Of a stretch of 64,000 nt of DNA, positions 5,395 to 24,774 are shown in pieces. Within the stretch, counting starts at the first letter, position 1, and each line of letters opens with the position of its first letter. The stretch is from the NCBI GenBank assembly GCA_964429815.1, contig CAYSCM010000001.1:32001-96000 (forward strand), read 5' to 3'. Origin of the DNA: an uncultured Candidatus Saccharibacteria bacterium (GTDB taxonomy: Bacteria; Patescibacteriota; Minisyncoccia; Phycocordibacterales; CAYSCM01). The notes below the pieces were generated by a model. It saw only the letters and a list, made by a program, of their open reading frames with translations, ran no database searches and was not told where the DNA came from. Both the position numbers and the translations under genes were made by a program.

Positions 5395-6299
5395 CTTCTC
5401 CACGCGCTCAGGTCGCGCCCGGTAAATGCCTCGAGTTTTTGCAGTTCGGGTTCATAGCGAGCGCGGAGGGCTTCTTTGAGCTTCGGGTCGAGCGTCCCGT
5501 AGCTAGCTTCCCCGGTCCCCGCCCTCGTGTCGATGGAGCGCACTACTTTTTGGTGGAGCGGCGTTTTGCGGAAGAGGGAGAGGAGGGGCTCTCCGAATGG
5601 CAGGGCTTTGAGTAGCTTCCGCGCCCTGAGCGCGTGTCTGCGCAAGAGTGTCGCTCCGGCGGAATTTATGGTCGTGGCGAGCGAGGGCGGCACGAACGAG
5701 GCATCGACGCCGATGAAAGAAAAGATATCTCTCATATATTTTTTTGGGTCGGCACGCATATCGTCATAGAACGTAATGAGTATCTGGTCGCGGGAAAATA
5801 CCTTGAGATAATTTTCGAGGTGCTTCATATAGAAGCTCTCCTCGATAAACGACGGTTTAGTTTTAATAATTTCCTCAAGGGTTGGGAGCTCATGTGCGCC
5901 CTTTAGCTTCGTGTACATGTAGTGGGAAAAAAAGCGCTCCGTAGGGTTTCGCAATACCGCAATGATCTTCGCTTTAGGAAAATGTGTACGGAGGCGCTCC
6001 GGCACCTCGGGTGCGTGAATATAGATAGGAGTGACTTCTCCGTATACCCTCTTCCCTACACAGTGACCAAAATGTTCAAAATACCCTTCGAGAGCGCCGT
6101 TGTATTTTGTTTTCCCCACCAAATCAGTGCGCCAGAAACTTTGCGTCGTGTTAAAAAAGTTGAGCTCTTTGGGTTCGGAAACACAGACCTCGGGGTGCTC
6201 TTTGAGACATTGGTGGAGCCAGGTGGTGCCCGTCCGCTCCGGACCAATCACGAAGAAATCAATGGAAAAAGGCTTTGCTGTAGATGAAATGGTACTCAT
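5391..6299 (-). CDS. Sulfotransferase family protein (PAPS-dependent, carbohydrate sulfotransferase-like)
   Basis: FFVIGPERTGTTWL matches the 5'-PSB motif (PKSGTTW). IAVLRNPTERFFSHY matches the 3'-PB motif (RNPxD...S.Y). The start overlaps the upstream gene stop in an ATGA arrangement. Confidence 0.75.
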   Translation of the reverse strand: MSTISSTAKPFSIDFFVIGPERTGTTWLHQCLKEHPEVCVSEPKELNFFNTTQSFWRTDLVGKTKYNGALEGYFEHFGHCVGKRVYGEVTPIYIHAPEVPERLRTHFPKAKIIAVLRNPTERFFSHYMYTKLKGAHELPTLEEIIKTKPSFIEESFYMKHLENYLKVFSRDQILITFYDDMRADPKKYMRDIFSFIGVDASFVPPSLATTINSAGATLLRRHALRARKLLKALPFGEPLLSLFRKTPLHQKVVRSIDTRAGTGEASYGTLDPKLKEALRARYEPELQKLEAFTGRDLSAWRS

Positions 6300-6931
6300 G
6301 AGGCCGTCGGGATGGATTCCTTGTCGCGGTTTGAGAAAAACAGGTAGTCGACGATGGCGTGGAAGAAAACCGCGTGAAGCGCCTCAACGGGACCGTAGGC
6401 ACCTTTTCCTGTCTCAATGATTATCTTGTGGTGACAGAGGCTCTTCGCTTTGCCTCCGTCAAAACCAAGAACGCCTATCGCCGTGCCGCCCTTAGCGCAT
6501 ATGTACTCGATCGCGCGAAGCACATTGGGGGAATTGCCACTTGCGGAAATGACGATGAGCACATCGTCGGGACGAAAAATGTGCTTAAGCTGGTCCGCAA
6601 AAACGTTCTCGTAGCCGACATCGTTCCCGAGCGCCGTCACGGCGGCGATATTGTTGAGCGCGTGAATACGAAACGGCTTTTCTTCCGTACCACCCCCGTT
6701 CGTGGTGAGATCGGCCGCAAAGTGAGCCGCCATGGCAGCGCTCCCCCCGTTGCCGGCGATGTAGATCGTAGAGCCCCTCTCCCGGGCCTTTTGAAGCACG
6801 TCGATAATCTCCTCGACCGCTTTGGAATCTACGGCGGAAGCAAGCTCGAAGGCATGCGCAAGATACCCTTCCATAAATTCGGGTACCGATCCTTTTGTCT
6901 TTTGATAGATGGTATCGACGTGTCCTCTCAT
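6296..6931 (-). CDS. gmhA: Phosphoheptose isomerase (sedoheptulose-7-phosphate isomerase, SIS domain)
   Basis: It is a single SIS-domain protein of about 211 aa. STIYIAGNGGSAAMAAHFAADL is the GmhA signature. It is translationally coupled on both sides. Confidence 0.8.
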   Translation of the reverse strand: MRGHVDTIYQKTKGSVPEFMEGYLAHAFELASAVDSKAVEEIIDVLQKARERGSTIYIAGNGGSAAMAAHFAADLTTNGGGTEEKPFRIHALNNIAAVTALGNDVGYENVFADQLKHIFRPDDVLIVISASGNSPNVLRAIEYICAKGGTAIGVLGFDGGKAKSLCHHKIIIETGKGAYGPVEALHAVFFHAIVDYLFFSNRDKESIPTAS

Positions 6932-7932
6932 AGCGTTGTGAGCACCCCGCGGATGAGCTTCCCTTCCTCGAGGTCTTTGAGGGCGGCTCCTATCTCGTCG
7001 AAGGAATACTCTTTCGTAAGTAACTTATCCAAGCACATGACCTTCGGGTTTTCAACGTATTCACGCGCGTAGCGAGGAATGTCGCGGTCGAGCTCGCTCT
7101 CTCCGCCCCAGGTGCCGTAAAGCTTTTTGCCCTTGATGAGCCCGAAAGGGTTGATCGATATGGTTTCCCCGGGCGCAAGGTTTCCTGCAATAACGACGGT
7201 CCCGGCGTCCTTGACCGCGCGGTAGGCGCTCTCCATGGCGCCCTTGTTTCCCGAACACTCGACGGCCACATCGAAATCCTTTCCCTGAAACTCTTCGGCA
7301 GAGATCGCTTCATCGACGCCGAGCTCCTTTTTCGCATGCGCGAGCTTCCACGGAACGACGTCGATCGCGGTAACGTGAGCACCCTTCATGACGGCTCGAA
7401 TGAGTGCACTCGCTCCGATCCCCCCGATGCCGAATATAACCACTCGTTTGCCGTTGAGGTCTCCTAGGCGGTCGATGATACCCATGCCGGTCGGCACCGC
7501 GCACCCAAGAAGTGCCGCAATCGCGGGCTCCACCCCTTTTGACACCTTGGTGACACGATTCTCTGAGACGACCGCAAGCTCGGTAAACGTCGCCACGGAG
7601 CCACCGTTTACCTTCCCTTCTTTGCTTTGATACGTCGGCACCGGAGCGGATATACCCTCTCCAAGGATCCAACTTGCAACCACATAATCTCCGCTCCTTA
7701 CTTTCTGCACGCCTTCTCCGGCCGCGACCACCTCCGCTGCGGCTTCATGTCCCAATAAGTGGGGAATATATTCCGCTCCTTTCCTGCCGCGGATTTCATT
7801 GAGTTGGCTGTGGCAAAGTCCTGTCGCTAGCACTTTAATAAGTACCTGCCCCTTTTGAAGGGAGGGAACCTCAAGCTCCTCGATGGAGAGCGGTCCACCG
7901 ACGACGCGGAGTACTGCAGCGCGCGTTTTCAT
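6928..7932 (-). CDS. Zinc-type alcohol/sugar dehydrogenase (MDR superfamily)
   Basis: GHEAAAEVVAAGEGV is the zinc-ADH GHE motif. GIGGIGASAL is a NAD-binding GxGxxG. The likely start is MKTRAAVL at 7932; the ORF track extends to 7998. Confidence 0.75.
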   Translation of the reverse strand: MKTRAAVLRVVGGPLSIEELEVPSLQKGQVLIKVLATGLCHSQLNEIRGRKGAEYIPHLLGHEAAAEVVAAGEGVQKVRSGDYVVASWILGEGISAPVPTYQSKEGKVNGGSVATFTELAVVSENRVTKVSKGVEPAIAALLGCAVPTGMGIIDRLGDLNGKRVVIFGIGGIGASALIRAVMKGAHVTAIDVVPWKLAHAKKELGVDEAISAEEFQGKDFDVAVECSGNKGAMESAYRAVKDAGTVVIAGNLAPGETISINPFGLIKGKKLYGTWGGESELDRDIPRYAREYVENPKVMCLDKLLTKEYSFDEIGAALKDLEEGKLIRGVLTTL

Positions 7933-7933
7933 G

Positions 7934-8587
7934 CTAGGGGATAAACCAGTAGTAGTCACCCGTGTAGCCGACCTCGGCGAAGAGTTTTTTCCAATCATCG
8001 ACAGATAGGATGGTCTTTGCAGTAAGATTCCACTTCATCATGCGATCCTTCTCTTCTTCATGGTGGTAGGCGTCGACGGTAATGAACGAGTGTTTTCCTT
8101 TCACACGCTCAATCTCTCGAAGAGCCTCTTTACACTCAGGCAGTGGTAGGTTGTGAATGGTGTTAATCGAAATCACGAGATCGTAGGATTTATCCGCAAA
8201 TTGACTAAGATTTCTTGCATCTCCAACCGATACTGCGCCCGCAATTGAGGGCATGGCATTTTCGATAGCGTAGGAGGAAACATCAATACCGCGAACCACC
8301 ATGTGGGGAAGCCAATAGAGAAAATCATTAAGCATAAATCCCTTAGCACACCCGACATCAAGTACCGAAGAGTTGTTGTTGAGTCCGTAGTAATTTATGA
8401 AATCCCGAACCACCGGTACCCACCTCCCATCATAGCGGAAGCCGCCGTAGCCCTGATCCCTGGTGCCATCAAAAAACTCCCTGCCAAACTTTCGGGCAGT
8501 AGCAACATCCTCAGGAGACTTTTGTCCTCGAGCTTCAATGTTGCGTTTGGCTTTTGGATATTTCGAAAGAAGATCGATTTCTGCCAT
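7934..8587 (-). CDS. SAM-dependent methyltransferase
   Basis: VLDVGCAKG is motif I. It is 217 aa, a size typical of O-antigen/NDP-sugar modifying methyltransferases. Confidence 0.65.
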   Translation of the reverse strand: MAEIDLLSKYPKAKRNIEARGQKSPEDVATARKFGREFFDGTRDQGYGGFRYDGRWVPVVRDFINYYGLNNNSSVLDVGCAKGFMLNDFLYWLPHMVVRGIDVSSYAIENAMPSIAGAVSVGDARNLSQFADKSYDLVISINTIHNLPLPECKEALREIERVKGKHSFITVDAYHHEEEKDRMMKWNLTAKTILSVDDWKKLFAEVGYTGDYYWFIP

Positions 8588-8596
8588 AGTGGTTGG

Positions 8597-10366
8597 TTAT
8601 TTTTTTTCGGGAAGAAGCTTAACCATCATGTTGTCATTGAACTCTTTTCTTGCAAGTAGCGGCTCGGGATCCTCGAGCGGCCGACCGAACTTTACCTGCG
8701 GGATTACGCGGTGCTTCGGGTTAATCTCGATGTTACAAAACACAGGCCCCCTCATCGCGAGCACCTTCTTAACTCCCCCGCTCAACTCGCGGTTCTTCTT
8801 GATCGTAATGGTTTTGAAGCCAAAGGAGGAAGCAATTTTGGCAAAGTCTGGGAACGCAAGTCCTCCCCCTTCCGAAGACGCAAGATACGCCGAATTAAAC
8901 CACTGATCTTGAGTCTGCTGTATCATACTGTAGCCGTGGTTATTCAATACAAAAATCTTGATCGGAAGTTTGTGCTTGAGAAGGGTACTTAACTCTTGCA
9001 AATTCATTTGGAGTGAACCATCTCCGGTTACACAAATAATTGATTTCTTGTTAAGCGCCAGGCTTACCCCAATGCTCGCCGGCAAAGCCCACCCCATCGC
9101 GGTGTTGTTCCAATCGTGGTAAAGACGCTGACCTTTCTTGAAGGAAAATCCCTGCATCATCCATGCGACCGTGCAGCCGGTATCAATGACCATTACTTCG
9201 TTCTGACGCGTGTAGCGAGAGAGCTCCTCAACAAATACATACGGATTGACCCCTTTCTCTTTGTAGTACGCGGGTGGGCACATGGGATATTTTTTCTTCC
9301 ATGCGGCAATACGTCTAAGCCAGGGTGAGATGTCGTTTTTTGGCAAACGTGCGGCGTGCTTTTGAAATGCCTTCAGCAGCTCTTTTGCGTCACCGGAGAT
9401 ACGCACATCGACTTTCAGGCCAAATTTTTTAAACTTCTTAAGTTCGTAGGGGTCAATATCGATGACTATCTTTTTTGCCTCTCGCGCAAACGTGTTGGGA
9501 GGACTACCCGTCGATTTGGTATCAAGACGGCTTCCGATTGAGAGGATCATGTCAGCGTTCTGGACGGCAAAATTGGCAAACCGCGTGCCGTGAGTGCCAA
9601 AGGTGCCGATGCGAAGTGGATGACTCTCTGGCAGGAGATCCCCTGCCCCCCATGTGAGTGCCGCAGGAAAGCCGAGTGTTTCCAAAAGTGAGATGGCCTC
9701 TTTTTCGGCCCCCGCGAGGTGGATTCCCCACCCAAACACAACGACGGGGCGCTTCGCCTGCCGTAGATAGTTTATGCTTCGAGCTACATCAACCGGCGCT
9801 TTCTTCTTCTCGACGGAGGGTGTAAACGAGGGAAGCTCTCCTGGATTAATTTCTCTGCGCTGAATGTCGTCGGGAATATCGAGCACTACGGGTCCTGGCC
9901 TACCACTTCGCGCCAGAAAGATCGCTTTCTCAAGCTCGTAGCGTATGCGCCTCTCATCGGTGATGAGTATCGCGTACTTAGTGATAGGACGATACATTTC
10001 GACCGTTGCCGTTTCTTGAAAACCCACTTGCCGCACGTTGGTATGACCTTTCATCCTAAAGGTGGCTACTTGGCCGGTAATAAATATGACGGGTACCGAA
10101 TCGTAGTAGGCGGAGCACACTCCCGTGATCATGTTCGTAGCACCTGGCCCTGAGGTGGACATCGCTACACCGAGGCCACCCGTGGCCCTCGCGTACCCGT
10201 CGGCAGCCATTGCCCCCGCTTGCTCGTGTCCTGGACAGATGACCTCCATTCCCCCCGTGCGCGCCACCGAATGAATAAGGTGAAGGGATGCTCCGCCGGA
10301 GATGGCAAAGACATGCTTCACCCCTTCTTTGCGGAGAACCTGTGCTACGTAGTCGGTGAGCTTCAT
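8597..10366 (-). CDS. Thiamine-pyrophosphate-dependent enzyme, acetolactate synthase large-subunit-like (YerE-like candidate for sugar C2-branch attachment)
   Basis: The N-terminal MKLTDYVAQVLRKEGVKHVFAISGGASL...GPGATNMITG has the TPP PYR domain. The central domain and C-terminal VTGDGSLQMNLQEL...N TPP-binding GDG motif are also present. It is 589 aa. Confidence 0.85.
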   Translation of the reverse strand: MKLTDYVAQVLRKEGVKHVFAISGGASLHLIHSVARTGGMEVICPGHEQAGAMAADGYARATGGLGVAMSTSGPGATNMITGVCSAYYDSVPVIFITGQVATFRMKGHTNVRQVGFQETATVEMYRPITKYAILITDERRIRYELEKAIFLARSGRPGPVVLDIPDDIQRREINPGELPSFTPSVEKKKAPVDVARSINYLRQAKRPVVVFGWGIHLAGAEKEAISLLETLGFPAALTWGAGDLLPESHPLRIGTFGTHGTRFANFAVQNADMILSIGSRLDTKSTGSPPNTFAREAKKIVIDIDPYELKKFKKFGLKVDVRISGDAKELLKAFQKHAARLPKNDISPWLRRIAAWKKKYPMCPPAYYKEKGVNPYVFVEELSRYTRQNEVMVIDTGCTVAWMMQGFSFKKGQRLYHDWNNTAMGWALPASIGVSLALNKKSIICVTGDGSLQMNLQELSTLLKHKLPIKIFVLNNHGYSMIQQTQDQWFNSAYLASSEGGGLAFPDFAKIASSFGFKTITIKKNRELSGGVKKVLAMRGPVFCNIEINPKHRVIPQVKFGRPLEDPEPLLARKEFNDNMMVKLLPEKK

Positions 10367-10370
10367 GGCG

Positions 10371-11228
10371 CTACCAGGGCATCTGCTCCTTAACGCTTAT
10401 AAAGAGTGTCCCGTCACGGTAGCTCTCGGGCATATCGCCGGCTTTTGTGACAAGTCCCCACCCTATCTTCTGCGAGAACAAATTGACGCCGGAGCCTGTA
10501 AAGTGCTTGAAAATGTGCTTGGCATTCTCCGCGGTCCCAACCTCGACCAGGCCGTCACAGCTCTCCCAATCGGAAGCTTCGGTCGAGAGGAGTACTTCCT
10601 TCTCGTGCCCTTCGACGTCCATTTTGATGAGATCAGCGCCGGCGAGAATCGGCCCGAACGCTTCGAGCTCCACGGAGAACATTTCCCGATCCCCGTAGAC
10701 GTCGTGCTTTGCTCCCGAGAGGTGACTCCCCGTAGTGTTGCCGAGCACTCGGGTAAAATCTGCTGAACCCGAGCGACTTGAGACGGCGCTGTTGTGAAGG
10801 CTGGCAGAATTACATCCGTTACGCGCAAGATTTTTTTTGAGGATATCGAAATGAACCGGATCGGGCTCGTAGGAGGAAACCTTAAAACCACAACGACAAA
10901 GGATAATCGAGTGAAGTCCAATATTTGCTCCGAGGTCTACAACGCTCGTATAGCGATTGCGATTGCGCCAGTAAAAACTGAAAATAACGAGTTCATTGAG
11001 GTCAAAGAGATTCCGCGAATCGACATTACCCATGTTGTGGTATGGAAACGAGATATCTCCAAATGGCGGAAAGTGGACCGACTCTTTTGAATCAACGGGA
11101 AAGAGCCTCTCCACTTCCTTCCGAGCTTTGGCGGCACGTTCTTTGAATGGCGCGCTTGTCGGAGTATGAGAGGGTAATTCCTGCGGGAGCGTGGCAAAGA
11201 TATTCTCCAAAAAAGCCGAGGATTCCAT
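10371..11228 (-). CDS. FkbM-family SAM-dependent methyltransferase
   Basis: VVDLGANIG and KMDVEGHE are FkbM-domain hallmarks. Confidence 0.7.
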   Translation of the reverse strand: MESSAFLENIFATLPQELPSHTPTSAPFKERAAKARKEVERLFPVDSKESVHFPPFGDISFPYHNMGNVDSRNLFDLNELVIFSFYWRNRNRYTSVVDLGANIGLHSIILCRCGFKVSSYEPDPVHFDILKKNLARNGCNSASLHNSAVSSRSGSADFTRVLGNTTGSHLSGAKHDVYGDREMFSVELEAFGPILAGADLIKMDVEGHEKEVLLSTEASDWESCDGLVEVGTAENAKHIFKHFTGSGVNLFSQKIGWGLVTKAGDMPESYRDGTLFISVKEQMPW

Positions 11229-11244
11229 GACGGGAGATACCCTA

Positions 11245-12042
11245 TCAGATTTTTCGTAATTTTAATAGCTCGGGGTCACGCGCGAGCGTTTTTGAAAAGC
11301 GCGCGCTCCCCCACGCGTCATAGACAACGTGTACATCTCTTCCCCCGACTACCTTTTTTGCTGACCCAATGACCCAGTCGAGACAGTCGAGAACTCGCTC
11401 CATGGGTATAAAGTCCCCGCGCGCTAGCTTTTTCCTTGTTCGAGCATACGTATCGCCCGCGCGCCTGCCGGCGGTGATAGTCTCCTGATGGATTTTGCTG
11501 CGCACCCAACCGGGGCCTATGGTGACGAAGCGAGCATCGTTCAGCTCCGCGTCGAGGATTTCAAACATTTTTATGGTCGCTATCTTTGAAACGGTATACG
11601 CCGAGAAATTGCGTGGTGCGTTGTTCGTCCCCCCACCAGAAAATGAAATTATGCAGGGTTTTTTGGATTTCGAACGTCTGGGCAGAAGTCCGTGGATGAT
11701 GCCCATGTGAGAAAGAAAATTGAGGCGAATTGATTTTTCCCAGTCTCCGAAAGAAACGCGTTGAAAAGCTCCTATGGGCGTAAGGGTCGCCGGAGCCAGT
11801 ACAAGAACGTCCCAGGCCACCGCGAGGCTCCGCAACGTACGTAGCGCCCTATGTACAGAGGCAGGTCGAGCGACGTCACAGTGTATAAGGTGTGCGCCAA
11901 GTTTTTGCAATCCTTCTGTGGTGTGGCTGCCGGTTCTATACGTGCCGAAAACCGCCCAGCCGCGGTTTAAGTATCTTCGAGCTATGGCGGTGCCGATATC
12001 GCTTGAAATGCCGACGATGATTATTGAGCCAGTTTTTTTCAT
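11245..12042 (-). CDS. Short-chain dehydrogenase/reductase (SDR)
   Basis: GISSDIGTAIA is the TGxxxGIG cofactor motif. It is about 265 aa. Confidence 0.7.
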   Translation of the reverse strand: MKKTGSIIIVGISSDIGTAIARRYLNRGWAVFGTYRTGSHTTEGLQKLGAHLIHCDVARPASVHRALRTLRSLAVAWDVLVLAPATLTPIGAFQRVSFGDWEKSIRLNFLSHMGIIHGLLPRRSKSKKPCIISFSGGGTNNAPRNFSAYTVSKIATIKMFEILDAELNDARFVTIGPGWVRSKIHQETITAGRRAGDTYARTRKKLARGDFIPMERVLDCLDWVIGSAKKVVGGRDVHVVYDAWGSARFSKTLARDPELLKLRKI

Positions 12043-12215
12043 GACGCGCTCTTTTGGTTGATGACGCTCGCGTTTTTCACGAATATGCCTATACTACACT
12101 ACTGCGCCACCGCAGGTTTCCAACCTACAAAACGCAGTGGAAAAGAAAAATTAATGGGTACGGTGAATTACAACGGGTCGAAACTTGACCCGTCTCTGGT
12201 AGAGTTGTACAGAAC

Positions 12216-13496: not shown

Positions 13497-13508
13497 AAAA
13501 CCTTACTA

Positions 13509-14732
13509 TCACGCGCTCCCGCGGGGAGCGAGGGTGTGCGGCCAGGTAAGTACGCCAAGATCTGCCTCCTCGATGTTCTCTTTCCATTTTCGCATATCCG
13601 AAACCGAGATAAGATGTGCAAATTCCTTTTTCAGGGTTTCGAGTGTTTCCTGTTCCCAGGAAACTTTCTGAAATGCTTGTCGTTGCCACGGAAACGAGTC
13701 ACCTTCCTTGAGCCAGCTGTAGTTGTTGGCGACGTCGGGCATCACGAAACTGGACGCAAAGTACGCTATATCATCCCGCAAAAAGGCCCACGAGAGAGGG
13801 CCACTCGAGACGCACAGGTAAAAGAGCGCGCGCTGTACTAGGGCTAGATCCTGCTCGCTGTTCGTCCCATAGTCTTTGGTAAAGATAACGTTTGGCCCGC
13901 GCAGCGCTTCATTGATCTCGGCTCCCCTGCCTAAAATAATGAAGGTGCACTCGGGATACTGCTTCGAACAGTACCTAAAAAATTCTCGCCAGACTTTCGG
14001 TTTAGCGTTTCGGTGCGAGGCAAAAAAGGGATTGCTGCGCAGGCTGACCGCTACGGCGTATCCAGGCGCATGTTTTTTGATAAATGCTCGTGCCCACGCA
14101 TCAGTGAGGGCGGGTATCTTCAGCTTCGGTAGAGATCCGTACCGCTCGTAGAATTCCTTGAAAAACAAGTAGCCACGACGGTAGGGAGAATTGCTATTTA
14201 CGTAGTCAAAAAGAGATGGGGTGAGGATATACTTTCCCCGGCGCTCAGCGAGAAAAGACTCGAATTCATCCCTGGAATCGAAAATGTGGACCGACCCCAA
14301 CTTTGGATTGGTACGCAAAACAGGAAAAATCTCAATGAAGTGGAGCGGGACATTTTCTTTGGTGATCCAACCCGCATATTTAGAATGTCGACTAGGTCTT
14401 TCTCTGTCGTATACAAAAGCGTAGTCGATCTTTTCAACTTCATGGATGTGGGCCTCGCATAGCGTCCTGATCTGGTGCTCGATCAGTATCCCAAATGAGA
14501 CATCGGTGGTGAGAAAATCATTAATGCCCAGAATCCTTCGATCATTTCGCTCGTGGCGACGCAGAACGTAGCGGGCATAGCGCATCGAACCAACAATGCC
14601 TCGACGATACCAACGTTCATACACGCGATACGTCAAAAAATTGACTGCGACATCAAAGGCGGGTACCAAAAAGGGGGGCAGCATTTTTCGAAAATGCACA
14701 ACCGCAGGTTTCTTGTTGAGTGCGCGCAACAT
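13509..14732 (-). CDS. Hypothetical protein with divergent GT9 (heptosyltransferase-like) C-terminal signature
   Basis: The C-terminal DLALVQRALFYLCVSSGPLSWAFL resembles the GT9 motif (L..LAALI..A.L.VGNDSGP.HLAAA). The N-terminal 150 aa are unrecognised. It is translationally adjacent to the HldC-like gene. Confidence 0.4.
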   Translation of the reverse strand: MLRALNKKPAVVHFRKMLPPFLVPAFDVAVNFLTYRVYERWYRRGIVGSMRYARYVLRRHERNDRRILGINDFLTTDVSFGILIEHQIRTLCEAHIHEVEKIDYAFVYDRERPSRHSKYAGWITKENVPLHFIEIFPVLRTNPKLGSVHIFDSRDEFESFLAERRGKYILTPSLFDYVNSNSPYRRGYLFFKEFYERYGSLPKLKIPALTDAWARAFIKKHAPGYAVAVSLRSNPFFASHRNAKPKVWREFFRYCSKQYPECTFIILGRGAEINEALRGPNVIFTKDYGTNSEQDLALVQRALFYLCVSSGPLSWAFLRDDIAYFASSFVMPDVANNYSWLKEGDSFPWQRQAFQKVSWEQETLETLKKEFAHLISVSDMRKWKENIEEADLGVLTWPHTLAPRGSA

Positions 14733-14733
14733 G

Positions 14734-15231
14734 TTAGCGTCGGTAGGTTGAATTTTTTTTGATTGCCGTAATGATATCGCGTGTGCTTAATTTTTTGTCT
14801 TTCGTAAAGGTAATCCTGCAACCCACCTTCTGAGCGCTTTGTATTTCCTCTGCGAAATCTTTATTCGGCGGGATACCGCGGTAATCGGGACCGCGCACAT
14901 ACAGGTCCGGCTTGAGAGCACGTATGAATCTTGATCCATTGTTAGCATCATTAATGAACACGAAATCAACCGGGCGAAGCTGCGAGAGCATGTAGGCCCG
15001 CATATGCTCGGTGAACACCGGGCGGCCGATACCTTTTTGTCTTCGTACCTGTTTATCACTTGCGATCGCAACCACGAGCACATCACAGAGGCGCTTTGCG
15101 GATTCAAAATGCATCGCATGCCCGGGGTGGAGCAGATCATAGTTGCCGTTACAAAAACCGATGATCTTCCCCTCCTTTTTACGTCGAGCAAGTATGGGAC
15201 GAAGCTGCTGAAAGGAGATGATGCGTGCCAT
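14734..15231 (-). CDS. Cytidylyltransferase-like nucleotidyltransferase; best match to the heptose 1-phosphate adenylyltransferase domain (HldC / RfaE domain II). TagD-like glycerol-3-P cytidylyltransferase is not excluded.
   Basis: GFCNGNYDLLHPGH is the HxGH motif. VVAIASDKQVRRQKGIGRPVF...LKPDLYVRGPDY parallels E. coli HldE domain II (VNSDAS..LKG..RPV...PDLLVKGGDY). Confidence 0.65.
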   Translation of the reverse strand: MARIISFQQLRPILARRKKEGKIIGFCNGNYDLLHPGHAMHFESAKRLCDVLVVAIASDKQVRRQKGIGRPVFTEHMRAYMLSQLRPVDFVFINDANNGSRFIRALKPDLYVRGPDYRGIPPNKDFAEEIQSAQKVGCRITFTKDKKLSTRDIITAIKKNSTYRR

Positions 15232-15233
15232 AG

Positions 15234-16238
15234 CTACGGCTGATGGATATACTCGCGTGGATACTTTTTAAGTACATCCCACGACTCAGTGAGCCAAGAG
15301 ATAACTTCCTCAACCCCTCGCTCGAGCGGAATGCGCGGTTTCCACCCAAGAGCCTTCGCGGTCCCTCCAAACGAAAGCGCATAGACCTTATCCTGTCCAG
15401 GACGACCTTCACTCACTTTGGCGACTTCATTGAAACGAACCCCCATCTTGCGACACACGAGCTCAACGACGCCTCGAATGGAGCTCTGAGTGTGTGTCGA
15501 AAAATGATACACGCCACCAGACTTCCCTTTCTGGATCACGAGCTCAATACCGCGACATACATCCTCGATGTGTATGAAGCTACGCTTGATGGTGCCCCCT
15601 TGGTGAAGCGAGAGTTTAGTACCAACAAGGACCGAGAGGACCGTTTTTGGGATTACTTTGAAGAGCTGCTGATGCGCTCCATAGACATTCGCCGAGCGCA
15701 CAAAGCACACCGGAAAACCCTTGGTCTTATGGAGCGCGATGAGGAAGAGATCCCCTGCTCCCTTTGAGGCGGCGTAGGGCGTCGTCGGATTAAAGTAGGT
15801 AAGCGTCTCGGGGCCGCTGTATGAACCGTAAATTTCCGGCGTCGATATTTGTATGTACTTTTTTAAATAGGCCGTGTCTTTGAGGTGATCCGCGAGAGCA
15901 ACAATACCCAAGCAGTTGGTTCTAAACCAATCAAGCGGTTTTTTCCAACTAGCCTCAACGATGCCTTGGGCCGCGAAATTCACGACTATGTCAGGACGCT
16001 CGCTATCAAGGAGAGCGGCAAGTTTTTTTACATCTTTGTTTACGTCGAGCTTATGGAAACGATAGCGGCGCGCGGAGGGTTTTTTCCCTTTGTAGAGGTA
16101 GGGCAAAAATTCAGGCTCCTTCTCAGATGAGCGACTAATACCGATGACTATGTAATTTGTTTTCCGAAGCAGGTAATCGACGAGGTGTCCTCCCGAAAAA
16201 GAATTACTCCCGATGATAGCTATTTTTTTCAGAGCCAT
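15234..16238 (-). CDS. NAD-dependent NDP-sugar 4,6-dehydratase/epimerase (extended SDR, dTDP-glucose 4,6-dehydratase-like)
   Basis: IAIIGSNSFSGGHL is a Rossmann motif. YAASKGAGD is the YxxxK catalytic motif. Confidence 0.7.
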   Translation of the reverse strand: MALKKIAIIGSNSFSGGHLVDYLLRKTNYIVIGISRSSEKEPEFLPYLYKGKKPSARRYRFHKLDVNKDVKKLAALLDSERPDIVVNFAAQGIVEASWKKPLDWFRTNCLGIVALADHLKDTAYLKKYIQISTPEIYGSYSGPETLTYFNPTTPYAASKGAGDLFLIALHKTKGFPVCFVRSANVYGAHQQLFKVIPKTVLSVLVGTKLSLHQGGTIKRSFIHIEDVCRGIELVIQKGKSGGVYHFSTHTQSSIRGVVELVCRKMGVRFNEVAKVSEGRPGQDKVYALSFGGTAKALGWKPRIPLERGVEEVISWLTESWDVLKKYPREYIHQP

Positions 16239-16249
16239 GTGAGCAAAGT

Positions 16250-17317
16250 TTAAAACGGACCGGTAAAACGCTTATCGGGCACATCGAGCGGCGTCGTGCG
16301 TTTCTTCTCTTCCGCTGCGACGAGCGACTCTAATTTTTTTGTATCCCCCTCAACCATAGAGACCACCATTCTGGCCATATCGATATAGCGCGGGTAGTAC
16401 TCATTGGCAAGCGCAGGCGTTGATGGGCTTGGCAGATCCGGCGCGGTAAGCCGGCGAGGGTTGGTCCGTAGACTGATTGTCGAATCCTCCGCGACTTGTG
16501 TGATTATCTCTCCCGCGACCCCGAAGCTGCGATGCCCGAGATCGGCCACAAGCAGCCGTCCTGTTTTTTTGACTGAGCGTGCTATTGTCTCGGTATCAAG
16601 AGGTTTAAGACTTCGCACATCGACGACCTCGGCGCTCACGCCAACCTTTTGGAGTAACTCCTGCGCACGCAGAGCCTCGTAGGTGAAGTAGGACGTTGTT
16701 ACAAGGGAAACATCGCTTCCCCGGCGCATTATACGAGCCTTGCCGATGGGCACCCTATAGTGACCCTCGGGAACATCTTCAGCAAGATCATGGAGCCATC
16801 GATGATCGATATATATGACCGGATTATCGTCCTCAATCGCGGCGAGCATCAGTCCCTTGGCATCGGAGGGGGTCGCGGGCATCACTACCTTGAGCCCGGG
16901 GATGTGCGCATAGAGGGCTTGGAGATTTTGTGAATGCTGCGGGCCCTGCCCCCATCCCATGCCGATGGTCATTTTCACCGTAAGGGGTACCGATTGCGCT
17001 CCGTTGTACATGTACGACCATTTCGCCGCATTGTTGATCACCTGCTCGATCGCAAGAAGGCTGAAGTCAACTCTCTGGTGCGTTAGGACTGGGCGCATCC
17101 CATTTACCGCCGCACCGATGCAGATCCCGGTTACCGCGAGCTCAGAAGTTGGCATATCAAGTACTCGTTTTGCGCCATGTTTTTTCTGAAGTCCCGTCGT
17201 CGTGCCAAAAATTCCCTTTGGATCAGGGACACCCAATCCTATAAGGAACACCGACTTGTCTTTAGCCAGAGCAAGATCAAATGCTTCTCGTATTGCTTGC
17301 GAATATGTTTTACGCAT
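16250..17317 (-). CDS. TPP-dependent 2-oxoacid dehydrogenase E1 component, beta subunit-like (transketolase-like pyrimidine-binding and C-terminal domains)
   Basis: MRKTYSQAIREAF...SVFLIGLGV...MPTSELAVTGICIGAAVNGMRPV is a canonical E1-beta N-terminus. The start is probably the ATG at 17317; the ORF track extends to 17401. It is coupled to the E1-alpha gene. Confidence 0.8.
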   Translation of the reverse strand: MRKTYSQAIREAFDLALAKDKSVFLIGLGVPDPKGIFGTTTGLQKKHGAKRVLDMPTSELAVTGICIGAAVNGMRPVLTHQRVDFSLLAIEQVINNAAKWSYMYNGAQSVPLTVKMTIGMGWGQGPQHSQNLQALYAHIPGLKVVMPATPSDAKGLMLAAIEDDNPVIYIDHRWLHDLAEDVPEGHYRVPIGKARIMRRGSDVSLVTTSYFTYEALRAQELLQKVGVSAEVVDVRSLKPLDTETIARSVKKTGRLLVADLGHRSFGVAGEIITQVAEDSTISLRTNPRRLTAPDLPSPSTPALANEYYPRYIDMARMVVSMVEGDTKKLESLVAAEEKKRTTPLDVPDKRFTGPF

Positions 17318-18269
17318 AGAGGTGTTCGGCAAGAGCTTCCCTCTTTGGAAACGGGCTCTTTTCGGCAAAACGGAATGCTCCATCAACCTGTCGAATCGCA
17401 TCGTTTCGGATTTTTTCGATGAGGTCGCTAGAAAGCACCTCTTTCTTCAGGAGCTCACGCTCGAACATCGCGACAGGATCCTTCTTCTTCCACACGGCAA
17501 CCTCCTTCGGATCACGGTACCCAAGCTCGTCATCAAAATTTGGGCCGCAGTGCTCACGGTAGCGGTAGGTCGAAAATTCCAAAAAAACTGGACCCGAACG
17601 GACGGCTTTTCTGGCTTTTGTTGCGGCAGCGAGAACGGTCGAAACATCGTTACCATCGTGGCGCGACGCAGGAATGCCGTGCCCTTTGGCAAGCGCGTAG
17701 ATGGGGCGTTTAGGTTGGCGCTCAGAGAGATGTGTGTACACCGAGAAGCGGTTATCTTCGCACACAAATACAATGGGTAGTTTGTGGAGCGCCGCAAAAT
17801 TGAGACTTTCATGGAAAGCCCCCTCCTCGACGGTACCATCCCCAAAAAACGAAACGATGACGCGGTTTTCCTTCCGGAGCTTCGCTGCAAACGCCGCTCC
17901 CGTTGCAATCGGAATGCTGTTGCCGACGATGGGTGTGGCCCCGCCAAAACCGGCCTTGAGATCAATGAGGTGCATGGAGCCGCCCTTGCCACCGCAGCAG
18001 CCCGTAGCTTTGCCATAGAGCTCAGCCATCATCGCATTGAGGTTGCCGCCTTTAGCGAGGTAATGAGCGTGACAGCGATGGGTACTATACACGAGATCCT
18101 CTGCCGTGAGCGCCGCGCACACCCCAACCGCAACGGCCTCTTGGCCGATCGAGAGGTGGACGGGACAGCGCATCTTTCCTTCGCTATAGCGACGAGCTAT
18201 CGTCTCTTCCGTCGTGCGTATGAGAATGAGCTTGCGGTAGAGCGATAGGAGTGCTTCATTTTTCTTCAT
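17310..18269 (-). CDS. TPP-dependent 2-oxoacid dehydrogenase E1 component, alpha subunit-like (pyruvate/acetoin dehydrogenase E1-alpha family)
   Basis: GDGTVEEGAFHESLNFAAL and MRCPVHLSIGQEA are the E1-alpha TPP-binding motifs. No E2 or E3 genes are nearby. Confidence 0.85.
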   Translation of the reverse strand: MKKNEALLSLYRKLILIRTTEETIARRYSEGKMRCPVHLSIGQEAVAVGVCAALTAEDLVYSTHRCHAHYLAKGGNLNAMMAELYGKATGCCGGKGGSMHLIDLKAGFGGATPIVGNSIPIATGAAFAAKLRKENRVIVSFFGDGTVEEGAFHESLNFAALHKLPIVFVCEDNRFSVYTHLSERQPKRPIYALAKGHGIPASRHDGNDVSTVLAAATKARKAVRSGPVFLEFSTYRYREHCGPNFDDELGYRDPKEVAVWKKKDPVAMFERELLKKEVLSSDLIEKIRNDAIRQVDGAFRFAEKSPFPKREALAEHLYA

Positions 18270-18270
18270 G

Positions 18271-19248
18271 CTACGTAAGCCCTAGCTTCTGCATCATCTT
18301 GACGTTGTGGTAGAGAGGATTGTTGAGACCGTCTGTTATGTCGCCCCGTTCGTATGCTGCCTTTATAGAGCGCACTGCCTCGGGGATATCAAACTGGGCC
18401 TTAAAGCCGAGTACACGCTCTATCTTGTCGGCATTGAGCTTGTAGGAGCGGTTATCGACGATCGAAGCCGATACCTTGATCGAAACTGCGGGGTCGTTGA
18501 GAACATCCTTGATGAGTTTCCCCGTATCGAGCACCGAAATATTCCAGAACCCGGTATTGAAGACTTCGCGATGAATTTTCTCCTGCGGAGCTGCGAGGAG
18601 CGTCTCGTAAATACGCACCATGTCGCGGATATTTATATGGGGTCGCAACTGGCTCCCGCCGAAGATGGTTATTTTCTTGTTTACGAGCGCATGCATGGTA
18701 AGTAAGTTCACGGTGAGGTCAAGTCGCAAACGCGTCGCGTAACCACACACCGTGCCCGGACGCACCGTCACGTAGTTGAGGTTGGTACCCTCAAGAACCT
18801 TTTCACACTCGAGCTTGTACTTGCCGTAATCCGTGATCGGCCTTCCCACCCTCTCCTCGGTCACTTCCCCCTCTTGGATACCATAGGTGCTCGCGGAGCT
18901 TGCGTAGATAAACCGACCGATGTCGTTTTCCTTCGCCGCATCGATGACGTTGAAGAACGCGTCGTAGTTGATCGATTTCCCGAGCGTTGGGTCGAGCTCG
19001 AAGCTCGGGTCGTTCGACACGCACGCAAGGTGAATGAGGGAATCGCAGCCTTTGGCCGACTCGATTAACTTTTTTCGGTCACGGATATCTCCCCGGATCT
19101 CAGTGAGGTTTTTCTGCTTGATGCCGGAAAAAACATCGCCGTAGAGATAGAGGTCGTACACAACGACGCTATGGCCCGCTTCGAGAAGTTTCGGAACGAG
19201 AGCGCTGCCGACGTATCCCGCTCCGCCTGTGATGAAGATCTTGGTCAT
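18271..19248 (-). CDS. NAD-dependent epimerase/dehydratase (extended SDR)
   Basis: The N-terminal motif is MTKIFITGGAGYVGS. YGKYK is the YxxxK motif. Confidence 0.75.
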   Translation of the reverse strand: MTKIFITGGAGYVGSALVPKLLEAGHSVVVYDLYLYGDVFSGIKQKNLTEIRGDIRDRKKLIESAKGCDSLIHLACVSNDPSFELDPTLGKSINYDAFFNVIDAAKENDIGRFIYASSASTYGIQEGEVTEERVGRPITDYGKYKLECEKVLEGTNLNYVTVRPGTVCGYATRLRLDLTVNLLTMHALVNKKITIFGGSQLRPHINIRDMVRIYETLLAAPQEKIHREVFNTGFWNISVLDTGKLIKDVLNDPAVSIKVSASIVDNRSYKLNADKIERVLGFKAQFDIPEAVRSIKAAYERGDITDGLNNPLYHNVKMMQKLGLT

Positions 19249-19250
19249 AG

Positions 19251-20309
19251 TTATGCGAGAAGTTCGCTTATAAAATCTTTGAGTTCCGCTTTCTTGATAG
19301 GTCTCTTATTGCCCACTATGCCTATCGCAAGTGCTCCGACTGCATTGCCGATAAAGCCGACCACGTCGAGCGGCACCCGGTTATGTACCAACGGGGCCGT
19401 CAGGGCCAGGAAAGCATCTCCCGCCCCCATTCGGTCGGTAAACGAGCTCCTCATCGTGGGGGCGTTCGTGATCTTCCCCCGATTATATAGGTAACAACCC
19501 ATGGGCCCTCCGGTCACAATGAAGTTTTTGTACCGGAGCTTGGTGGCGACGTTTCGCATGACGCTTATTAGGTCGTGATTGCGCTCGCGCGCCTCGAGCC
19601 GGAGCTCTCGCTCATCGGCGCAAACATAGTCGGCTTTTGGAAATACCGAAAGGGTATGAAACCCCATATTACCCGCGTTCGCCTGGGCCGTAAGGGCCAA
19701 AAAGGGTGAACGCTGCATAAGCTCCTTACGGCTCGCCCGGTCGAGCATGCCGTGCCCGAAATCACCGCAGATGACCAGATCGTGGGACTTGAAGAGCTTG
19801 CGAAGTGTCCGGACGACCTCCGCGCTCTCGCTTGCGCTCGGAGACTTGTCGCTCATAACGTAAAACTCGAGGAGTTTCTGAAGCGGTACCTCTTCCATAA
19901 ACCGCTTCTTCATGATGGTGGGAGCGCTCTTTTTGTAGAAAAAGACTGGCTTGACGTTTTTCGGGAGCGAGCGGCGAACGAATGCTTCTTGGGAATTTTC
20001 CTCGCCGAGCATGGCAAAAAGCGTCACCTCCTTGCAAAAGCTCGCGAGATGGTTGGCGATGGCGATGGACCCTCCGGCGTAGAGCTCTTTTTTTATTTCT
20101 TTGAGCGCGACGATGGGTTCCTTAGCGGACTTTCCAATGGACCTTCCGAACGTATATTCGTCGAGAATAGCCTCGCCCACCACGAGGACTCGCGTGTCTT
20201 TCATCGCTTCGAGCACATCAAAAAGGTACTCTTTCGAATACCTCTTCTTGAAACGCATCAGGTACGAATTCCAGTCGGTGCTAAGATTCTCTTTCATGGA
20301 TTCCGACAT
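19251..20309 (-). CDS. PfkB-family sugar kinase, D-glycero-beta-D-manno-heptose 7-phosphate kinase-like (HldA / RfaE domain I)
   Basis: VLVVGEAILDEY parallels RfaE-I VLVVGDVMLDRY. The C-terminal GAGDAF is a PfkB motif. The start is likely the ATG at 20309 (MSESMKEN); the ORF track extends to 20612, but that would overlap the upstream gene. Confidence 0.7.
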   Translation of the reverse strand: MSESMKENLSTDWNSYLMRFKKRYSKEYLFDVLEAMKDTRVLVVGEAILDEYTFGRSIGKSAKEPIVALKEIKKELYAGGSIAIANHLASFCKEVTLFAMLGEENSQEAFVRRSLPKNVKPVFFYKKSAPTIMKKRFMEEVPLQKLLEFYVMSDKSPSASESAEVVRTLRKLFKSHDLVICGDFGHGMLDRASRKELMQRSPFLALTAQANAGNMGFHTLSVFPKADYVCADERELRLEARERNHDLISVMRNVATKLRYKNFIVTGGPMGCYLYNRGKITNAPTMRSSFTDRMGAGDAFLALTAPLVHNRVPLDVVGFIGNAVGALAIGIVGNKRPIKKAELKDFISELLA

Positions 20310-22821: not shown

Positions 22822-23537
22822 CTCGTGAAGACAAGCATTTTGTATTTCGACTTCGTGGCGCCGACCATGCGATACAGCGAATCCAAAAACAAGGTGAGCG
22901 TGTATACAAACCAGTTTTTACCTAAATGAAAGAAAAGAAAACTATCGATGAAGTTGACATGGCGCAGTTCTGAGAGCGTGGCACCCACAGCCTCAAACTT
23001 AGCCTTAATCTCCGGCAGGGTTTCGACCTCCTTGTAAGACAACCCTTTCTGGAACGAAGGTACGCTCTCAGGTATGTACTCAAGCAATAGAATTTTGCTC
23101 CCCTTTTTCATGCCAGCTATTCCTTCAAAAAAGGCCAGCCTGGCTTCCGCCGAGAGGTGGACATATACGGTCGTAGTGTATACCACGTCGGCCTTCTTGA
23201 TAGCCTCGACAACTTCCGGTCGTGGTAATGGTTTTGGAACGAAGGATGTTTGCGGCAGGGTTCCGCGTATCCTCTGCACAATTTCGATATTGAACGGGAA
23301 ATCAAAACCCGTGAAGTGCGCGTTTGGCGCCAGTCTGTGAATCGCCTCAAGGTACTCGCCTACGCCGCACCCGACATCTACAACTTCCCTTGCTCCGGCA
23401 AAGTCACGGCGAGAGAAGGCGCCCGTGCGAATGTGGTAGGCGTACCGGTCTTGCCAAACATTATGATAGTGGCAGGGATTGTGGCCTTTTTTTGTTTGTT
23501 CGAGCCAATAGTCTTCTGTGCCGTTCGTATCAAGCAT
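22818..23537 (-). CDS. SAM-dependent methyltransferase
   Basis: VVDVGCGVGEY is motif I. It is 239 aa. Confidence 0.65.
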   Translation of the reverse strand: MLDTNGTEDYWLEQTKKGHNPCHYHNVWQDRYAYHIRTGAFSRRDFAGAREVVDVGCGVGEYLEAIHRLAPNAHFTGFDFPFNIEIVQRIRGTLPQTSFVPKPLPRPEVVEAIKKADVVYTTTVYVHLSAEARLAFFEGIAGMKKGSKILLLEYIPESVPSFQKGLSYKEVETLPEIKAKFEAVGATLSELRHVNFIDSFLFFHLGKNWFVYTLTLFLDSLYRMVGATKSKYKMLVFTR

Positions 23538-24713: not shown

Positions 24714-24742
24714 TTGACTATTGCAGATAATCGTGCTACAAT
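24714..24742 (+). promoter_or_regulatory. Near-consensus sigma70-type promoter (TTGACT-17-TACAAT) for the Nudix gene
   Basis: -35 TTGACT is at 24714-24719, followed by a 17-nt spacer and -10 TACAAT at 24737-24742. GAGGAGG precedes the ATG at 24775. Confidence 0.5.
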
Positions 24743-24774
24743 TTTGCCCGGTCTACAAAGCCGAGGAGGCACAC

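Follow-up and report, generated by a model that had tools for sequence, protein, structure and literature searches.

A candidate nucleotide-heptose-type cassette and an associated protein family of predicted GT9-like fold in a polysaccharide locus of a Candidatus Saccharibacteria bacterium

We analyzed a stretch of 64,000 nucleotides from an uncultured Candidatus Saccharibacteria bacterium (assembly GCA_964429815.1, contig CAYSCM010000001.1, positions 32,001 to 96,000), hereafter called the window. A polysaccharide locus of about 45 kb (window positions 1 to about 41700; G+C near 53%) encloses separate genes for a GmhA-like isomerase, an HldA-like kinase and an HldC-like nucleotidyltransferase, together with a gene for a 407-residue protein whose predicted fold resembles that of the GT9 glycosyltransferases (Table 1). 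We infer that the window holds, in split form, a widespread cassette that operates along the lines of the GmhA/HldE nucleotide-heptose pathway. More than 35 unrelated loci have the same gene set, in many cases with genes fused or in collinear order. We think it somewhat probable that the product of this cassette is a sedoheptulose-derived nucleoside diphosphate (NDP)-heptose, which is then heavily tailored. Every substrate and product named below is deduced from the observed family relationships, fusions, synteny, active-site motifs and predicted fold, and the reading is offered as a well-supported hypothesis, not as a discovery.

In the scheme that we propose, the isomerase would form an aldose phosphate from a ketose phosphate (most probably sedoheptulose 7-phosphate), and the PfkB-family kinase would phosphorylate the anomeric position of this product. 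A phosphatase encoded outside the window would remove the distal phosphate, and the nucleotidyltransferase would form the NDP-sugar. Tailoring of the NDP-sugar may involve a Cj1427-like C4-dehydrogenase, a 4,6-dehydratase-like short-chain dehydrogenase/reductase (SDR), a DegT-family aminotransferase and methyltransferases, with two-carbon (C2) branches added by thiamine-dependent E1 alpha and beta proteins and an acetolactate synthase (ALS)-like enzyme working with reductases. The 407-residue GT-B enzyme of GT9-like fold would finally transfer the product to a surface glycan that is flipped by a Wzx-type protein. This glycan is probably sulfated, two sulfotransferases being encoded in the locus.

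The isomerase, kinase and nucleotidyltransferase

A first-pass annotation of this DNA had read three genes as an ADP-heptose-type pathway and a fourth as a candidate heptosyltransferase. All four open reading frames were found where it had placed them, on the minus strand, and each of the three pathway genes indeed has its best match in the corresponding ADP-heptose family; what did not carry over is equivalence with the canonical enzymes, since all three fall under the equivalog cut-offs and bear altered motifs. The isomerase matches SIS_2 and scores 94.8 bits on TIGR00441 (gmhA; equivalog cut-off 209.45), the next rival being DiaA at 64. GmhA structures rank first in a PDB sequence search, led by that of Campylobacter jejuni (1tk9, E = 1.8e-23). 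The phosphate-binding residues S55, S119, S121 and S124 (E. coli GmhA numbering) are kept, as are the phosphate-binding serines in all the cassette isomerases that were aligned, while T120 is replaced by Ala in the window isomerase and by Ser in most of its relatives. The kinase scores 102.2 bits on TIGR02198 (rfaE_dom_I; cut-off 345) against 30.4 for ribokinase, the next model, so that the comparison with ribokinase leaves the HldA-like assignment standing. Its alignment to rfaE_dom_I is full-length (model positions 3-313 of 315), its sole strong PDB match, Burkholderia cenocepacia HldA (4e84), is aligned end to end, and the catalytic GAGD of the PfkB family is kept and is invariant in the kinase subfamily (DRMGAGDAF). 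The nucleotidyltransferase belongs to CTP_transf_like, contains the HxGH nucleotide-binding motif (GNYDLLHPGH) and scores 112.1 bits on TIGR02199 (rfaE_dom_II; cut-off 181.5).

The gene that most constantly adjoins the kinase gene encodes an SDR. Its top PDB sequence matches are 6vo6 and 6vo8 at 126.5 bits (the next match reaches 98 and HldD 29), both of which are C. jejuni Cj1427 according to the Foldseek entry titles. Cj1427 oxidizes C4 of GDP-heptose (PMC10680097, PMC9978623). A model of the window SDR (predicted local distance difference test score, pLDDT, 83) likewise retrieves Cj1427 with GDP-D-glycero-D-mannoheptose as the top Foldseek match (32% identity, E = 2e-24), and homologs at 200-440 bits stand beside the kinase in 24 loci. 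A heptose enzyme is therefore the nearest characterized relative of four cassette proteins, namely the isomerase, the kinase, the nucleotidyltransferase and this SDR. The SDR also has thousands of close relatives (P0184, P0203, P0211, P0217, P0241 and P0259 being among its homologs); the nearest named ones, at 57-61% identity, are from DPANN lineages (Woesearchaeota, Pacearchaeota, Nanoarchaeota and Aenigmatarchaeota), which suggests that the cassette has been exchanged between small-celled bacteria and archaea.

We scanned species-representative genomes with an alignment of the kinase and then mapped domains on all open reading frames of the recovered loci. With identities of 28-42%, 34 full-length relatives were recovered; they stem from Deltaproteobacteria, Elusimicrobia, Rokubacteria, many Rhodospirillales, Nitrospirae, Bdellovibrionota, Verrucomicrobia, Woesearchaeota and Nanoarchaeia, among them two cultured Bradyrhizobium strains. 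The cultured Bradyrhizobium sacchari p9-20 (L019) has the nucleotidyltransferase-kinase, the isomerase and the SDR as one module. In about 30 loci, from Proteobacteria, Elusimicrobia, Nitrospirae, Bdellovibrionota, Woesearchaeota and other groups, a protein of 510-570 residues has an N-terminal half homologous to the window nucleotidyltransferase and the kinase as its C-terminal half; L005 and L072, two further related loci, encode this fusion as well. This order is the reverse of that in E. coli HldE. Since the two domains are fused as one polypeptide in so many loci, the kinase and the nucleotidyltransferase act in one pathway. Further, a GmhA-like isomerase gene lies within 10 kb in 21 of the 34 genome loci and is also present in L072 and L073, and E1 alpha and beta, one or two DegT enzymes, homologs of the methyltransferase at 7934 and the Zn-dehydrogenase are frequent in these 34 loci. 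The fusions and the conserved synteny rule out a chance grouping of the three genes. In L073, from an NCBI assembly, the kinase, the isomerase, a HAD-IIIA phosphatase and the nucleotidyltransferase are encoded by four separate genes; the kinase and the nucleotidyltransferase match their window counterparts at 239 and 125 bits, respectively, and the isomerase has the same H-D-E-H site as that of the window, which is considered below, so that these three proteins are members of the window subfamily. The earlier description of the unfused state as the Gram-positive or archaeal style does not apply here: the relatives, the archaeal ones included, are mostly fused with the nucleotidyltransferase first.

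Two side observations concern the same clade. At L013 (4120-6234) and L028 (8484-10528), a free-standing nucleotidyltransferase gene lies directly upstream of a nucleotidyltransferase-kinase fusion whose own nucleotidyltransferase domain aligns partially; this domain may be a degenerating duplicate. The idea of a connection to bradyrhizose was dropped, as the literature gave only the canonical rfaD, rfaE and rfaF in Bradyrhizobium and no link to the cassette.

Within the window, the three genes had been ascribed to a single operon, which the layout contradicts. The genes for the kinase and the nucleotidyltransferase lie in a first minus-strand run (24669 to 13509), whose genes nearly abut or overlap except for 44 nt left free before the kinase gene. 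The isomerase gene belongs to a second minus-strand run (12042 to 5391), and the two are separated by the plus-strand flippase gene and a 173-nt divergent gap. These boundaries were set by strand and spacing alone because a promoter and terminator scan of the window was uninformative, returning fewer sites than in shuffled controls. The first run comprises, in order, genes for a GT4 glycosyltransferase, a methyltransferase, the DegT enzyme, a TagF-like protein, the PfkB kinase, the Cj1427-like SDR, E1 alpha, E1 beta, the 4,6-dehydratase-like SDR, the nucleotidyltransferase and the 407-residue protein. The second comprises those for a short-chain reductase, an FkbM methyltransferase, the ALS-like thiamine enzyme, a methyltransferase, a Zn-dehydrogenase, the SIS isomerase and a sulfotransferase. 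The kinase frame is part of a longer open reading frame reaching 20612, and a separate gene prediction for this contig has its start at 20297.

Several features of the enzymes weigh against taking them for a canonical ADP-heptose pathway. First, the zinc-binding and catalytic set of GmhA comprises H61, E65, Q172 and H180 (PMC5387315), whereas the window isomerase has H-D-E-H in place of H-E-Q-H (E65 to Asp, Q172 to Glu). D65 and E172 are found in all 23 cassette isomerases that were aligned with E. coli GmhA, the H180 position varying in five of them, while residues 65 and 172 are E and Q in the GmhAs of E. coli, C. jejuni and B. pseudomallei. The H-D-E-H residues could still be metal-binding, and the swap could point to another substrate or another stereochemistry of the product. 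Second, the NxxE motif is replaced by DxxE in the kinase: the position of PNLSE in HldE reads ADERE, and its Asp is invariant across the subfamily. Third, six motifs have been proposed for HldC from docking only, namely TNG, NSD, KG, ExTP, KGG and a C-terminal (F/L)xxGxSTT (PMC7993394, PMC11573728). The window protein has CNG, ASD, KG, DANN, RGP and FTKDKKLSTR at these places, so that KG is intact, the first and fifth are partial, and NSD, ExTP and the C-terminal motif are altered; the fused relatives have CHG, TAD, KG, xPTA, KGx and FTxDxxFSS(T/S), the C-terminal motif of the clade being both altered and longer than that of HldC. Fourth, rfaE_dom_I and rfaE_dom_II give 99-122 and 85-110 bits, respectively, for the fused proteins of Bradyrhizobium, L072 and one Woesearchaeote, and gmhA gives 89-96 bits for their isomerases (89-124 across the cassette relatives). 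As the scores of the relatives are as low as those of the window, the whole clade lies under the equivalog thresholds.

Fifth, no open reading frame of the 64-kb window matches a GmhB-type HAD-IIIA phosphatase at E<=1 with either E. coli GmhB or the L073 phosphatase as query, in keeping with the earlier remark that GmhB was not obvious, and no GmhB-type phosphatase was found within 10 kb on either side in the 34 genome loci. This absence is weak evidence because E. coli gmhB is itself unlinked from gmhA and hldE. The L073 phosphatase scores 58 bits on HAD-SF-IIIA (cut-off 44.6), with the GmhB models (52 and 43 bits) as its nearest equivalogs; to judge from the gene content of this locus, it shows that removal of a distal phosphate would belong to the pathway in at least one organism.

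For the window enzymes, "ADP-heptose" is thus an inferred label, given that none of them reaches its cut-off and that catalytic and substrate motifs are altered. On their sequences, the three form a separate, coherent and widespread subfamily and are not orthologs of the canonical enzymes, and the motif changes across the clade are compatible with an active pathway whose substrate or product, or both, has been modified. One rival reading follows the same logic with a different sugar: instead of a sedoheptulose-derived manno-heptose, the enzymes would handle a C2-epimeric heptose, a hexose or a lincosamide-type octose, and the altered isomerase site would be decisive. It draws on the universality of D65/E172 in the clade and its absence from the solved GmhAs, on the distance of all three enzymes from their cut-offs, on the partial retention of the sugar-binding motifs in the nucleotidyltransferase and on the lack of a linked GmhB in most loci. 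We nevertheless regard it as rather unlikely: the closest characterized relatives of four cassette proteins act on heptose, the nearest folds to the associated transferase use ADP-heptose, and L073 encodes a GmhB-like HAD-IIIA protein. A sedoheptulose-derived NDP-heptose hence stays our preferred product for the cassette.

The 407-residue protein and its linkage to the cassette

The 407-residue protein has no Pfam, NCBIfam or PDB match by sequence. A word-indexed search retrieved seven relatives, while in a full profile search 998 cluster representatives passed E<=1e-3 and 227 reached 1e-30, so that the family amounts to about 1,000 clusters at 50% identity; a scan of genome contigs with the protein yielded no relative. 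Conservation in the family profile spans roughly residues 55-385, and some members additionally carry TPR, GT4, GT2 or MptE-like domains. An AlphaFold model based on an alignment of 99 sequences (pLDDT 91.7; predicted template modeling score 0.86) consists of about 60 residues of N-terminal helices followed by two Rossmann domains in the GT-B arrangement. GT9 enzymes that depend on ADP-heptose are the structures nearest to this model, and other GT-B folds follow at a clear distance; the predicted fold is thus GT9-like specifically and not GT-B in general.

Two details given with the heptosyltransferase suggestion did not survive. The supposed unrecognized N-terminal extension of 150 residues resolves in the model into the helices just described and a normal N-terminal Rossmann domain of the GT-B fold, and in place of the reported GT9-like motif DSGP...HLA residues 307-318 read CVSSGPLSWAFL. 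The suggestion itself gains from the predicted structure and loses from the sequence profiles: Pfam Glyco_transf_9 (PF01075) matches none of 99 family members at E<=0.01 and none of ten at E<=10, and hhalign comparisons of the family profile with single E. coli sequences are not significant (WaaF, E = 0.085; WaaC, E = 0.48). Relative to the GT9 enzymes WaaC, WaaF and TibC, the protein has about 12% identity and the extra helical N-terminus, the Asp of DSGP is not conserved, and its context is a Wzx-type glycan locus and not an LPS (lipopolysaccharide) core locus.

Conserved positions of the family include an invariant Gly81; in 87 of the 99 members the next residue (82) is Asp or Glu, within an SxGD pattern where helix 1 begins. 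R241-N242...W248 and S310-G311-P312 are further motifs of the family. We take Asp82 to be the equivalent of WaaC Asp13, the GT9 base, judging from the sequence pattern and secondary structure rather than from superposition. The window protein lacks it, having Ile82 and, three residues on, Glu85. Glu85 is present in all 12 members without a carboxylate at position 82 (the window protein included) as against 1 of the other 87. It looks as if the catalytic carboxylate has shifted in these members, and hence in the window clade, by about one helical turn, from position 82 to position 85.

In six independent contexts, no more than about 9 kb separates the family gene from that of the kinase or the nucleotidyltransferase, and in four of them (the window, L005, L072 and L073) it directly adjoins one of the two. 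In the window, the stop codon of the nucleotidyltransferase gene is 1 nt before the start of the 407-residue gene, and in L005/L006 the latter overlaps the start of the nucleotidyltransferase-kinase fusion; to go by this spacing, the gene is translationally coupled to the nucleotidyltransferase in the window and to the fusion in L005. In L003 and L007, the kinase is 1-2 kb from the 407-family gene, with the nucleotidyltransferase of L007 about 8 kb away. The more distant L072 (28% identity) has a collinear series of the 407-family gene, the nucleotidyltransferase-kinase fusion, the isomerase, two SDRs, a methyltransferase, E1 alpha, E1 beta, another methyltransferase, a reductase and the ALS-like enzyme. 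In L073 (23% identity), the 407-family gene is directly followed by the kinase and the isomerase, with the phosphatase, the nucleotidyltransferase and a flippase alongside. The flippase gene adjoins the family in L003 and L005 and is no more than about 3 kb from it in L073. The contigs of three other members (L068, L070 and L074) are short (4.3-7.3 kb) and show neither kinase nor nucleotidyltransferase; upstream of the L068 member are the cassette methyltransferase, a NUDIX gene (1540-2103) and, directly before it, the Zn-dehydrogenase. The family was not found in the 34 genome loci recovered via the kinase, and the transferase therefore accompanies a subset of the occurrences of the pathway.

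We consider it improbable that the 407-residue protein is something other than the transferase for the product of the kinase and nucleotidyltransferase, be it an enzyme for an ordinary NDP-sugar or a non-catalytic or polymerase-type partner, its adjacency merely reflecting shared glycan loci. Such a view is fed by the missing significant GT9 sequence match, the missing Asp82 of the window protein, the short contigs without visible kinase or nucleotidyltransferase and the members fused to TPR, GT4 or GT2. It has to contend with six linked contexts that extend to members of 23-28% identity, four of them with immediate adjacency, with a specifically GT9-like predicted fold, and with the covariation of carboxylates at positions 82 and 85, which indicates a conserved catalytic requirement. 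We accordingly keep to the 407-residue protein as a candidate transferase for the activated sugar of the cassette.

Comparison with known systems and wider implications

With the GmhA/HldE pathway, the cassette shares the three protein families, their logical order, the coupling of kinase and nucleotidyltransferase, and the phosphate-binding serines, GAGD and HxGH. It departs from it in scores that lie between one quarter and about 60% of the equivalog cut-offs, in the reversed fusion of the relatives and the split genes of the window, in the H-D-E-H isomerase site and the missing GmhB of the window, and in having beside the kinase an SDR that is much nearer to Cj1427 (126 bits) than to HldD (29 bits).

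Summaries of Tang et al. (Science 2024) in PMC11461863 and PMC11573728 describe HldC-type nucleotidyltransferases from both bacteria and archaea, either free-standing or fused, for which ATP, CTP or UTP may serve as substrate. They fall into mono-domain, kinase/nucleotidyltransferase and isomerase/kinase/nucleotidyltransferase types, with (F/L)xxGRSTT as the hallmark of nucleotide promiscuity; the authors note that neighboring genes may reveal physiological roles. Compared with the enzymes in those summaries, the window clade has the nucleotidyltransferase before the kinase and the longer C-terminal motif FTxDxxFSS(T/S), which ends in KKLSTR in the window.

The GDP-heptose modification of the C. 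jejuni capsule employs the C4-dehydrogenase Cj1427, a 4,6-dehydratase, a pyridoxal phosphate-dependent C3-dehydratase, reductases and O-methyltransferases (PMC10680097), and the window resembles it in its Cj1427-like and 4,6-dehydratase-like SDRs, DegT-family enzyme and methyltransferases. The two differ in sugar activation, for which C. jejuni uses a GHMP kinase and a GDP-forming NTP_transferase and the window a PfkB kinase and an HldC-type nucleotidyltransferase (beta/ADP-type). The window also adds the thiamine-dependent E1 and ALS-like enzymes, which are missing from the C. jejuni pathways.

Branched-chain sugars of the YerE/YerF type, and two-carbon branching by E1 alpha/beta pairs in deoxysugar antibiotics, are built on CDP- or dTDP-dideoxyhexose substrates. 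The window shares with such systems the pairing of an ALS-like enzyme with a short-chain reductase and an orphan E1 alpha/beta pair beside enzymes that form 4-keto NDP-sugars, and differs in that its substrate would be a heptose-type NDP-sugar. By analogy with YerE, the ALS-like enzyme is a candidate for attaching a C2 branch to a keto-sugar.

A cytidylyltransferase of the TagD kind would imply a different product. The nucleotidyltransferase scores 37.1 bits on TagD (TIGR01518; cut-off 165.4), well under its rfaE_dom_II score, and the assignment to the HldC side withstands this comparison. Its top whole-protein PDB match is ethanolamine-phosphate cytidylyltransferase (ECT), with a score summed over two domains; per domain, B. 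pseudomallei HldC (5x9q) leads with 51.1, followed by the Thermoplasma RfaE-like protein (3glv) with 44.6, ECT with 36.4 and TagD with 31.5. That the enzyme makes a CDP-alcohol for the TagF-like protein, for example from an alditol phosphate supplied by the Zn-dehydrogenase, with the kinase and isomerase feeding in a precursor, is very improbable: although the nucleotidyltransferase is of the cytidylyltransferase superfamily, the TagF-like gene in the kinase/nucleotidyltransferase run hints at a CDP-alditol-type donor that no other window gene would supply, and the Zn-dehydrogenase, which we take to be TarJ-like and thus of the CDP-ribitol-synthesis class, overlaps the isomerase gene, the TagF-like gene accompanies the 407-residue family in L003 and L005 only and is not part of the conserved core, being absent from all 34 genome loci, and fusion of the nucleotidyltransferase to an HldA-like kinase argues that it uses a phosphate made by that kinase.

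Returning to the nucleotide-heptose-type cassette, we tentatively raise a broader possibility. The 407-residue proteins may be a new family of GT9-like fold, with no Pfam or NCBIfam entry, that provides the dedicated transferase of a second nucleotide-heptose-type pathway. This pathway would be marked by a GmhA with the D/E site, a reverse-fused or split nucleotidyltransferase and kinase, and a Cj1427-like dehydrogenase. It would extend over Proteobacteria, candidate-phyla bacteria and DPANN and produce C-branched, aminated and methylated higher sugars for non-LPS glycans, possibly including new NDP-heptose-type metabolites.

NDP-heptoses are known as building blocks of the LPS core and as innate-immune agonists, and enzymes for them have been found far outside Gram-negative bacteria, their purpose there not being known (PMC11573728). 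The cassette suggests a non-LPS use, in which one large clade would combine a tailored sugar, a GT9-like transferase and a flippase-dependent surface glycan. About 1,000 unannotated sequence clusters would thereby gain a testable function, and in annotation the D65/E172 pair, the nucleotidyltransferase-then-kinase order and the 82/85 carboxylate switch could serve to tell this pathway apart from the canonical genes for ADP-heptose.

Neighboring genes and other features of the window

Table 1. Genes of the cassette and its surroundings in the window, by position
Feature	Position	Strand	Length (residues)	Domain models and remarks
KdsC-type phosphatase	441-1082	minus		TIGR01670
KdsC-type phosphatase	1131-1697	plus		TIGR01670
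PseF-like CMP-sugar synthetase	1702-2454	plus		PseF 151 bits
Sulfotransferase	5391-6299	minus		end of second run
GmhA-like isomerase	6296-6931	minus	211	
Zn-dependent medium-chain dehydrogenase	6928-7932	minus		ADH_N, ADH_zinc_N; overlaps isomerase gene
S-adenosylmethionine-dependent (SAM) methyltransferase	7934-8587	minus		Methyltransf_31/25/11; homologs at 145-300 bits in many related loci
ALS-like thiamine enzyme	8597-10366	minus		all three TPP_enzyme domains; TIGR00118 449 bits (cut-off 538)
FkbM-type methyltransferase	10371-11228	minus		Methyltransf_21 / TIGR01444
Short-chain reductase	11245-12042	minus		adh_short; first gene of second run
Wzx-type flippase	12216-13496	plus		Polysacc_synt; between the two minus-strand runs
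GT-B protein of predicted GT9-like fold	13509-14732	minus	407	candidate transferase for activated sugar
HldC-like nucleotidyltransferase	14734-15231	minus	165	
NDP-sugar 4,6-dehydratase-like SDR	15234-16238	minus		dTDP_gluc_dehyt 188.7 bits (cut-off 365)
Thiamine-dependent E1 beta	16250-17317	minus		Transket_pyr, Transketolase_C; PRK09212 280 bits (cut-off 321)
Thiamine-dependent E1 alpha	17310-18269	minus		E1_dh; TIGR03182 326 bits (cut-off 394)
Cj1427-like SDR	18271-19248	minus		
HldA-like kinase	19251-20309	minus	352	
TagF-like glycerophosphotransferase-family protein	20354-21724	minus		Glyphos_transf 50 bits
DegT-type sugar aminotransferase	21721-22821	minus		DegT_DnrJ_EryC1 356 bits; one or two copies in most related loci
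Methyltransferase	22818-23537	minus		head of first run
GT4 glycosyltransferase	23530-24669	minus		head of first run
Second sulfotransferase of the locus	29070-29924			

Many of the tailoring genes recur with the cassette elsewhere. Homologs of the Zn-dehydrogenase accompany it in L008, L024, L030 and L038. In L003, L007, L026 and L072, the ALS-like gene has a short-chain reductase gene as its partner, and homologs of the window reductase (255-315 bits) adjoin the ALS-like gene in related loci. The top PDB matches of the 4,6-dehydratase-like SDR are dTDP-glucose 4,6-dehydratases, and its homologs are found in L003, L007, L026, L038, L040, L041 and L072. The E1 beta gene recurs in cassette loci, and no E2 or E3 partner for the E1 alpha/beta pair is present. 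The order of the methyltransferase and GT4 pair at the head of the first run is conserved in L003, a locus that also encodes a fusion of ATP-sulfurylase and adenylylsulfate (APS) kinase (822-2516).

Further genes stand near the cassette or elsewhere in the locus. A NUDIX hydrolase gene (24721-25362), which may encode a nucleotide-sugar hydrolase, flanks the first run. A B12-binding radical SAM protein lies beside the cassette in three contexts (window 2565-4307, L003 11248-13329 and L072 7742-9975), the nearest models being P- and C-methyltransferases. At 29975-33283, a Methyltransf_14 sugar C-methyltransferase stands beside tandem paralogs of GDP-mannose 4,6-dehydratase (31247-32251 and 32252-33283), which by their families form a predicted second, GDP-based deoxysugar branch of the locus. 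Among GT4 glycosyltransferases is an asparagine-synthase-type amidotransferase (34517-36331) that may amidate a uronic acid of the glycan.

The left end of the window belongs to an ulosonic-acid module. The two KdsC-type HAD genes noted in the first-pass annotation are present at 441-1697 (53 and 114 bits on TIGR01670), and its suggestion that one of them substitutes for GmhB, although possible, is not supported by their context. They are grouped with genes for the PseF-like synthetase and, in the 7.4 kb upstream of the window (L076, 1-7436), for NeuB, a second CMP-sugar synthetase (CTP_transf_3), a cupin and two 2-hydroxyacid dehydrogenases, a grouping that disfavors a GmhB role. The module also has two AAA_33 kinase-like proteins and, at its far end, a HAD_2 hydrolase, and in L035 PseF and KdsC are fused in one protein. 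The KdsC-type phosphatases thus most likely serve ulosonic-acid pathways.

Directly after the last glycan gene come a lamin-tail-domain protein and a TraG/VirD4-like coupling ATPase (41719-44305). The window further contains genes for tRNA-Leu and tRNA-Ile (48309-48616), 16S rRNA (50519-51980), 5S rRNA (60916-61021) and 23S rRNA (61464-64000), and the rRNA is bacterial. The tRNA-Ile gene is 1.9 kb downstream of the 16S gene, and the latter is unlinked from the 5S-23S pair, with about 9 kb of protein genes in between, among them SecD, a Bac_transf initiating sugar transferase, GT4 and FtsW/RodA. Together with the lamin-tail (LTD), DUF4015 and C39-like domains, the unlinked 16S gene gives the content of the window a flavor resembling that of the candidate phyla radiation.

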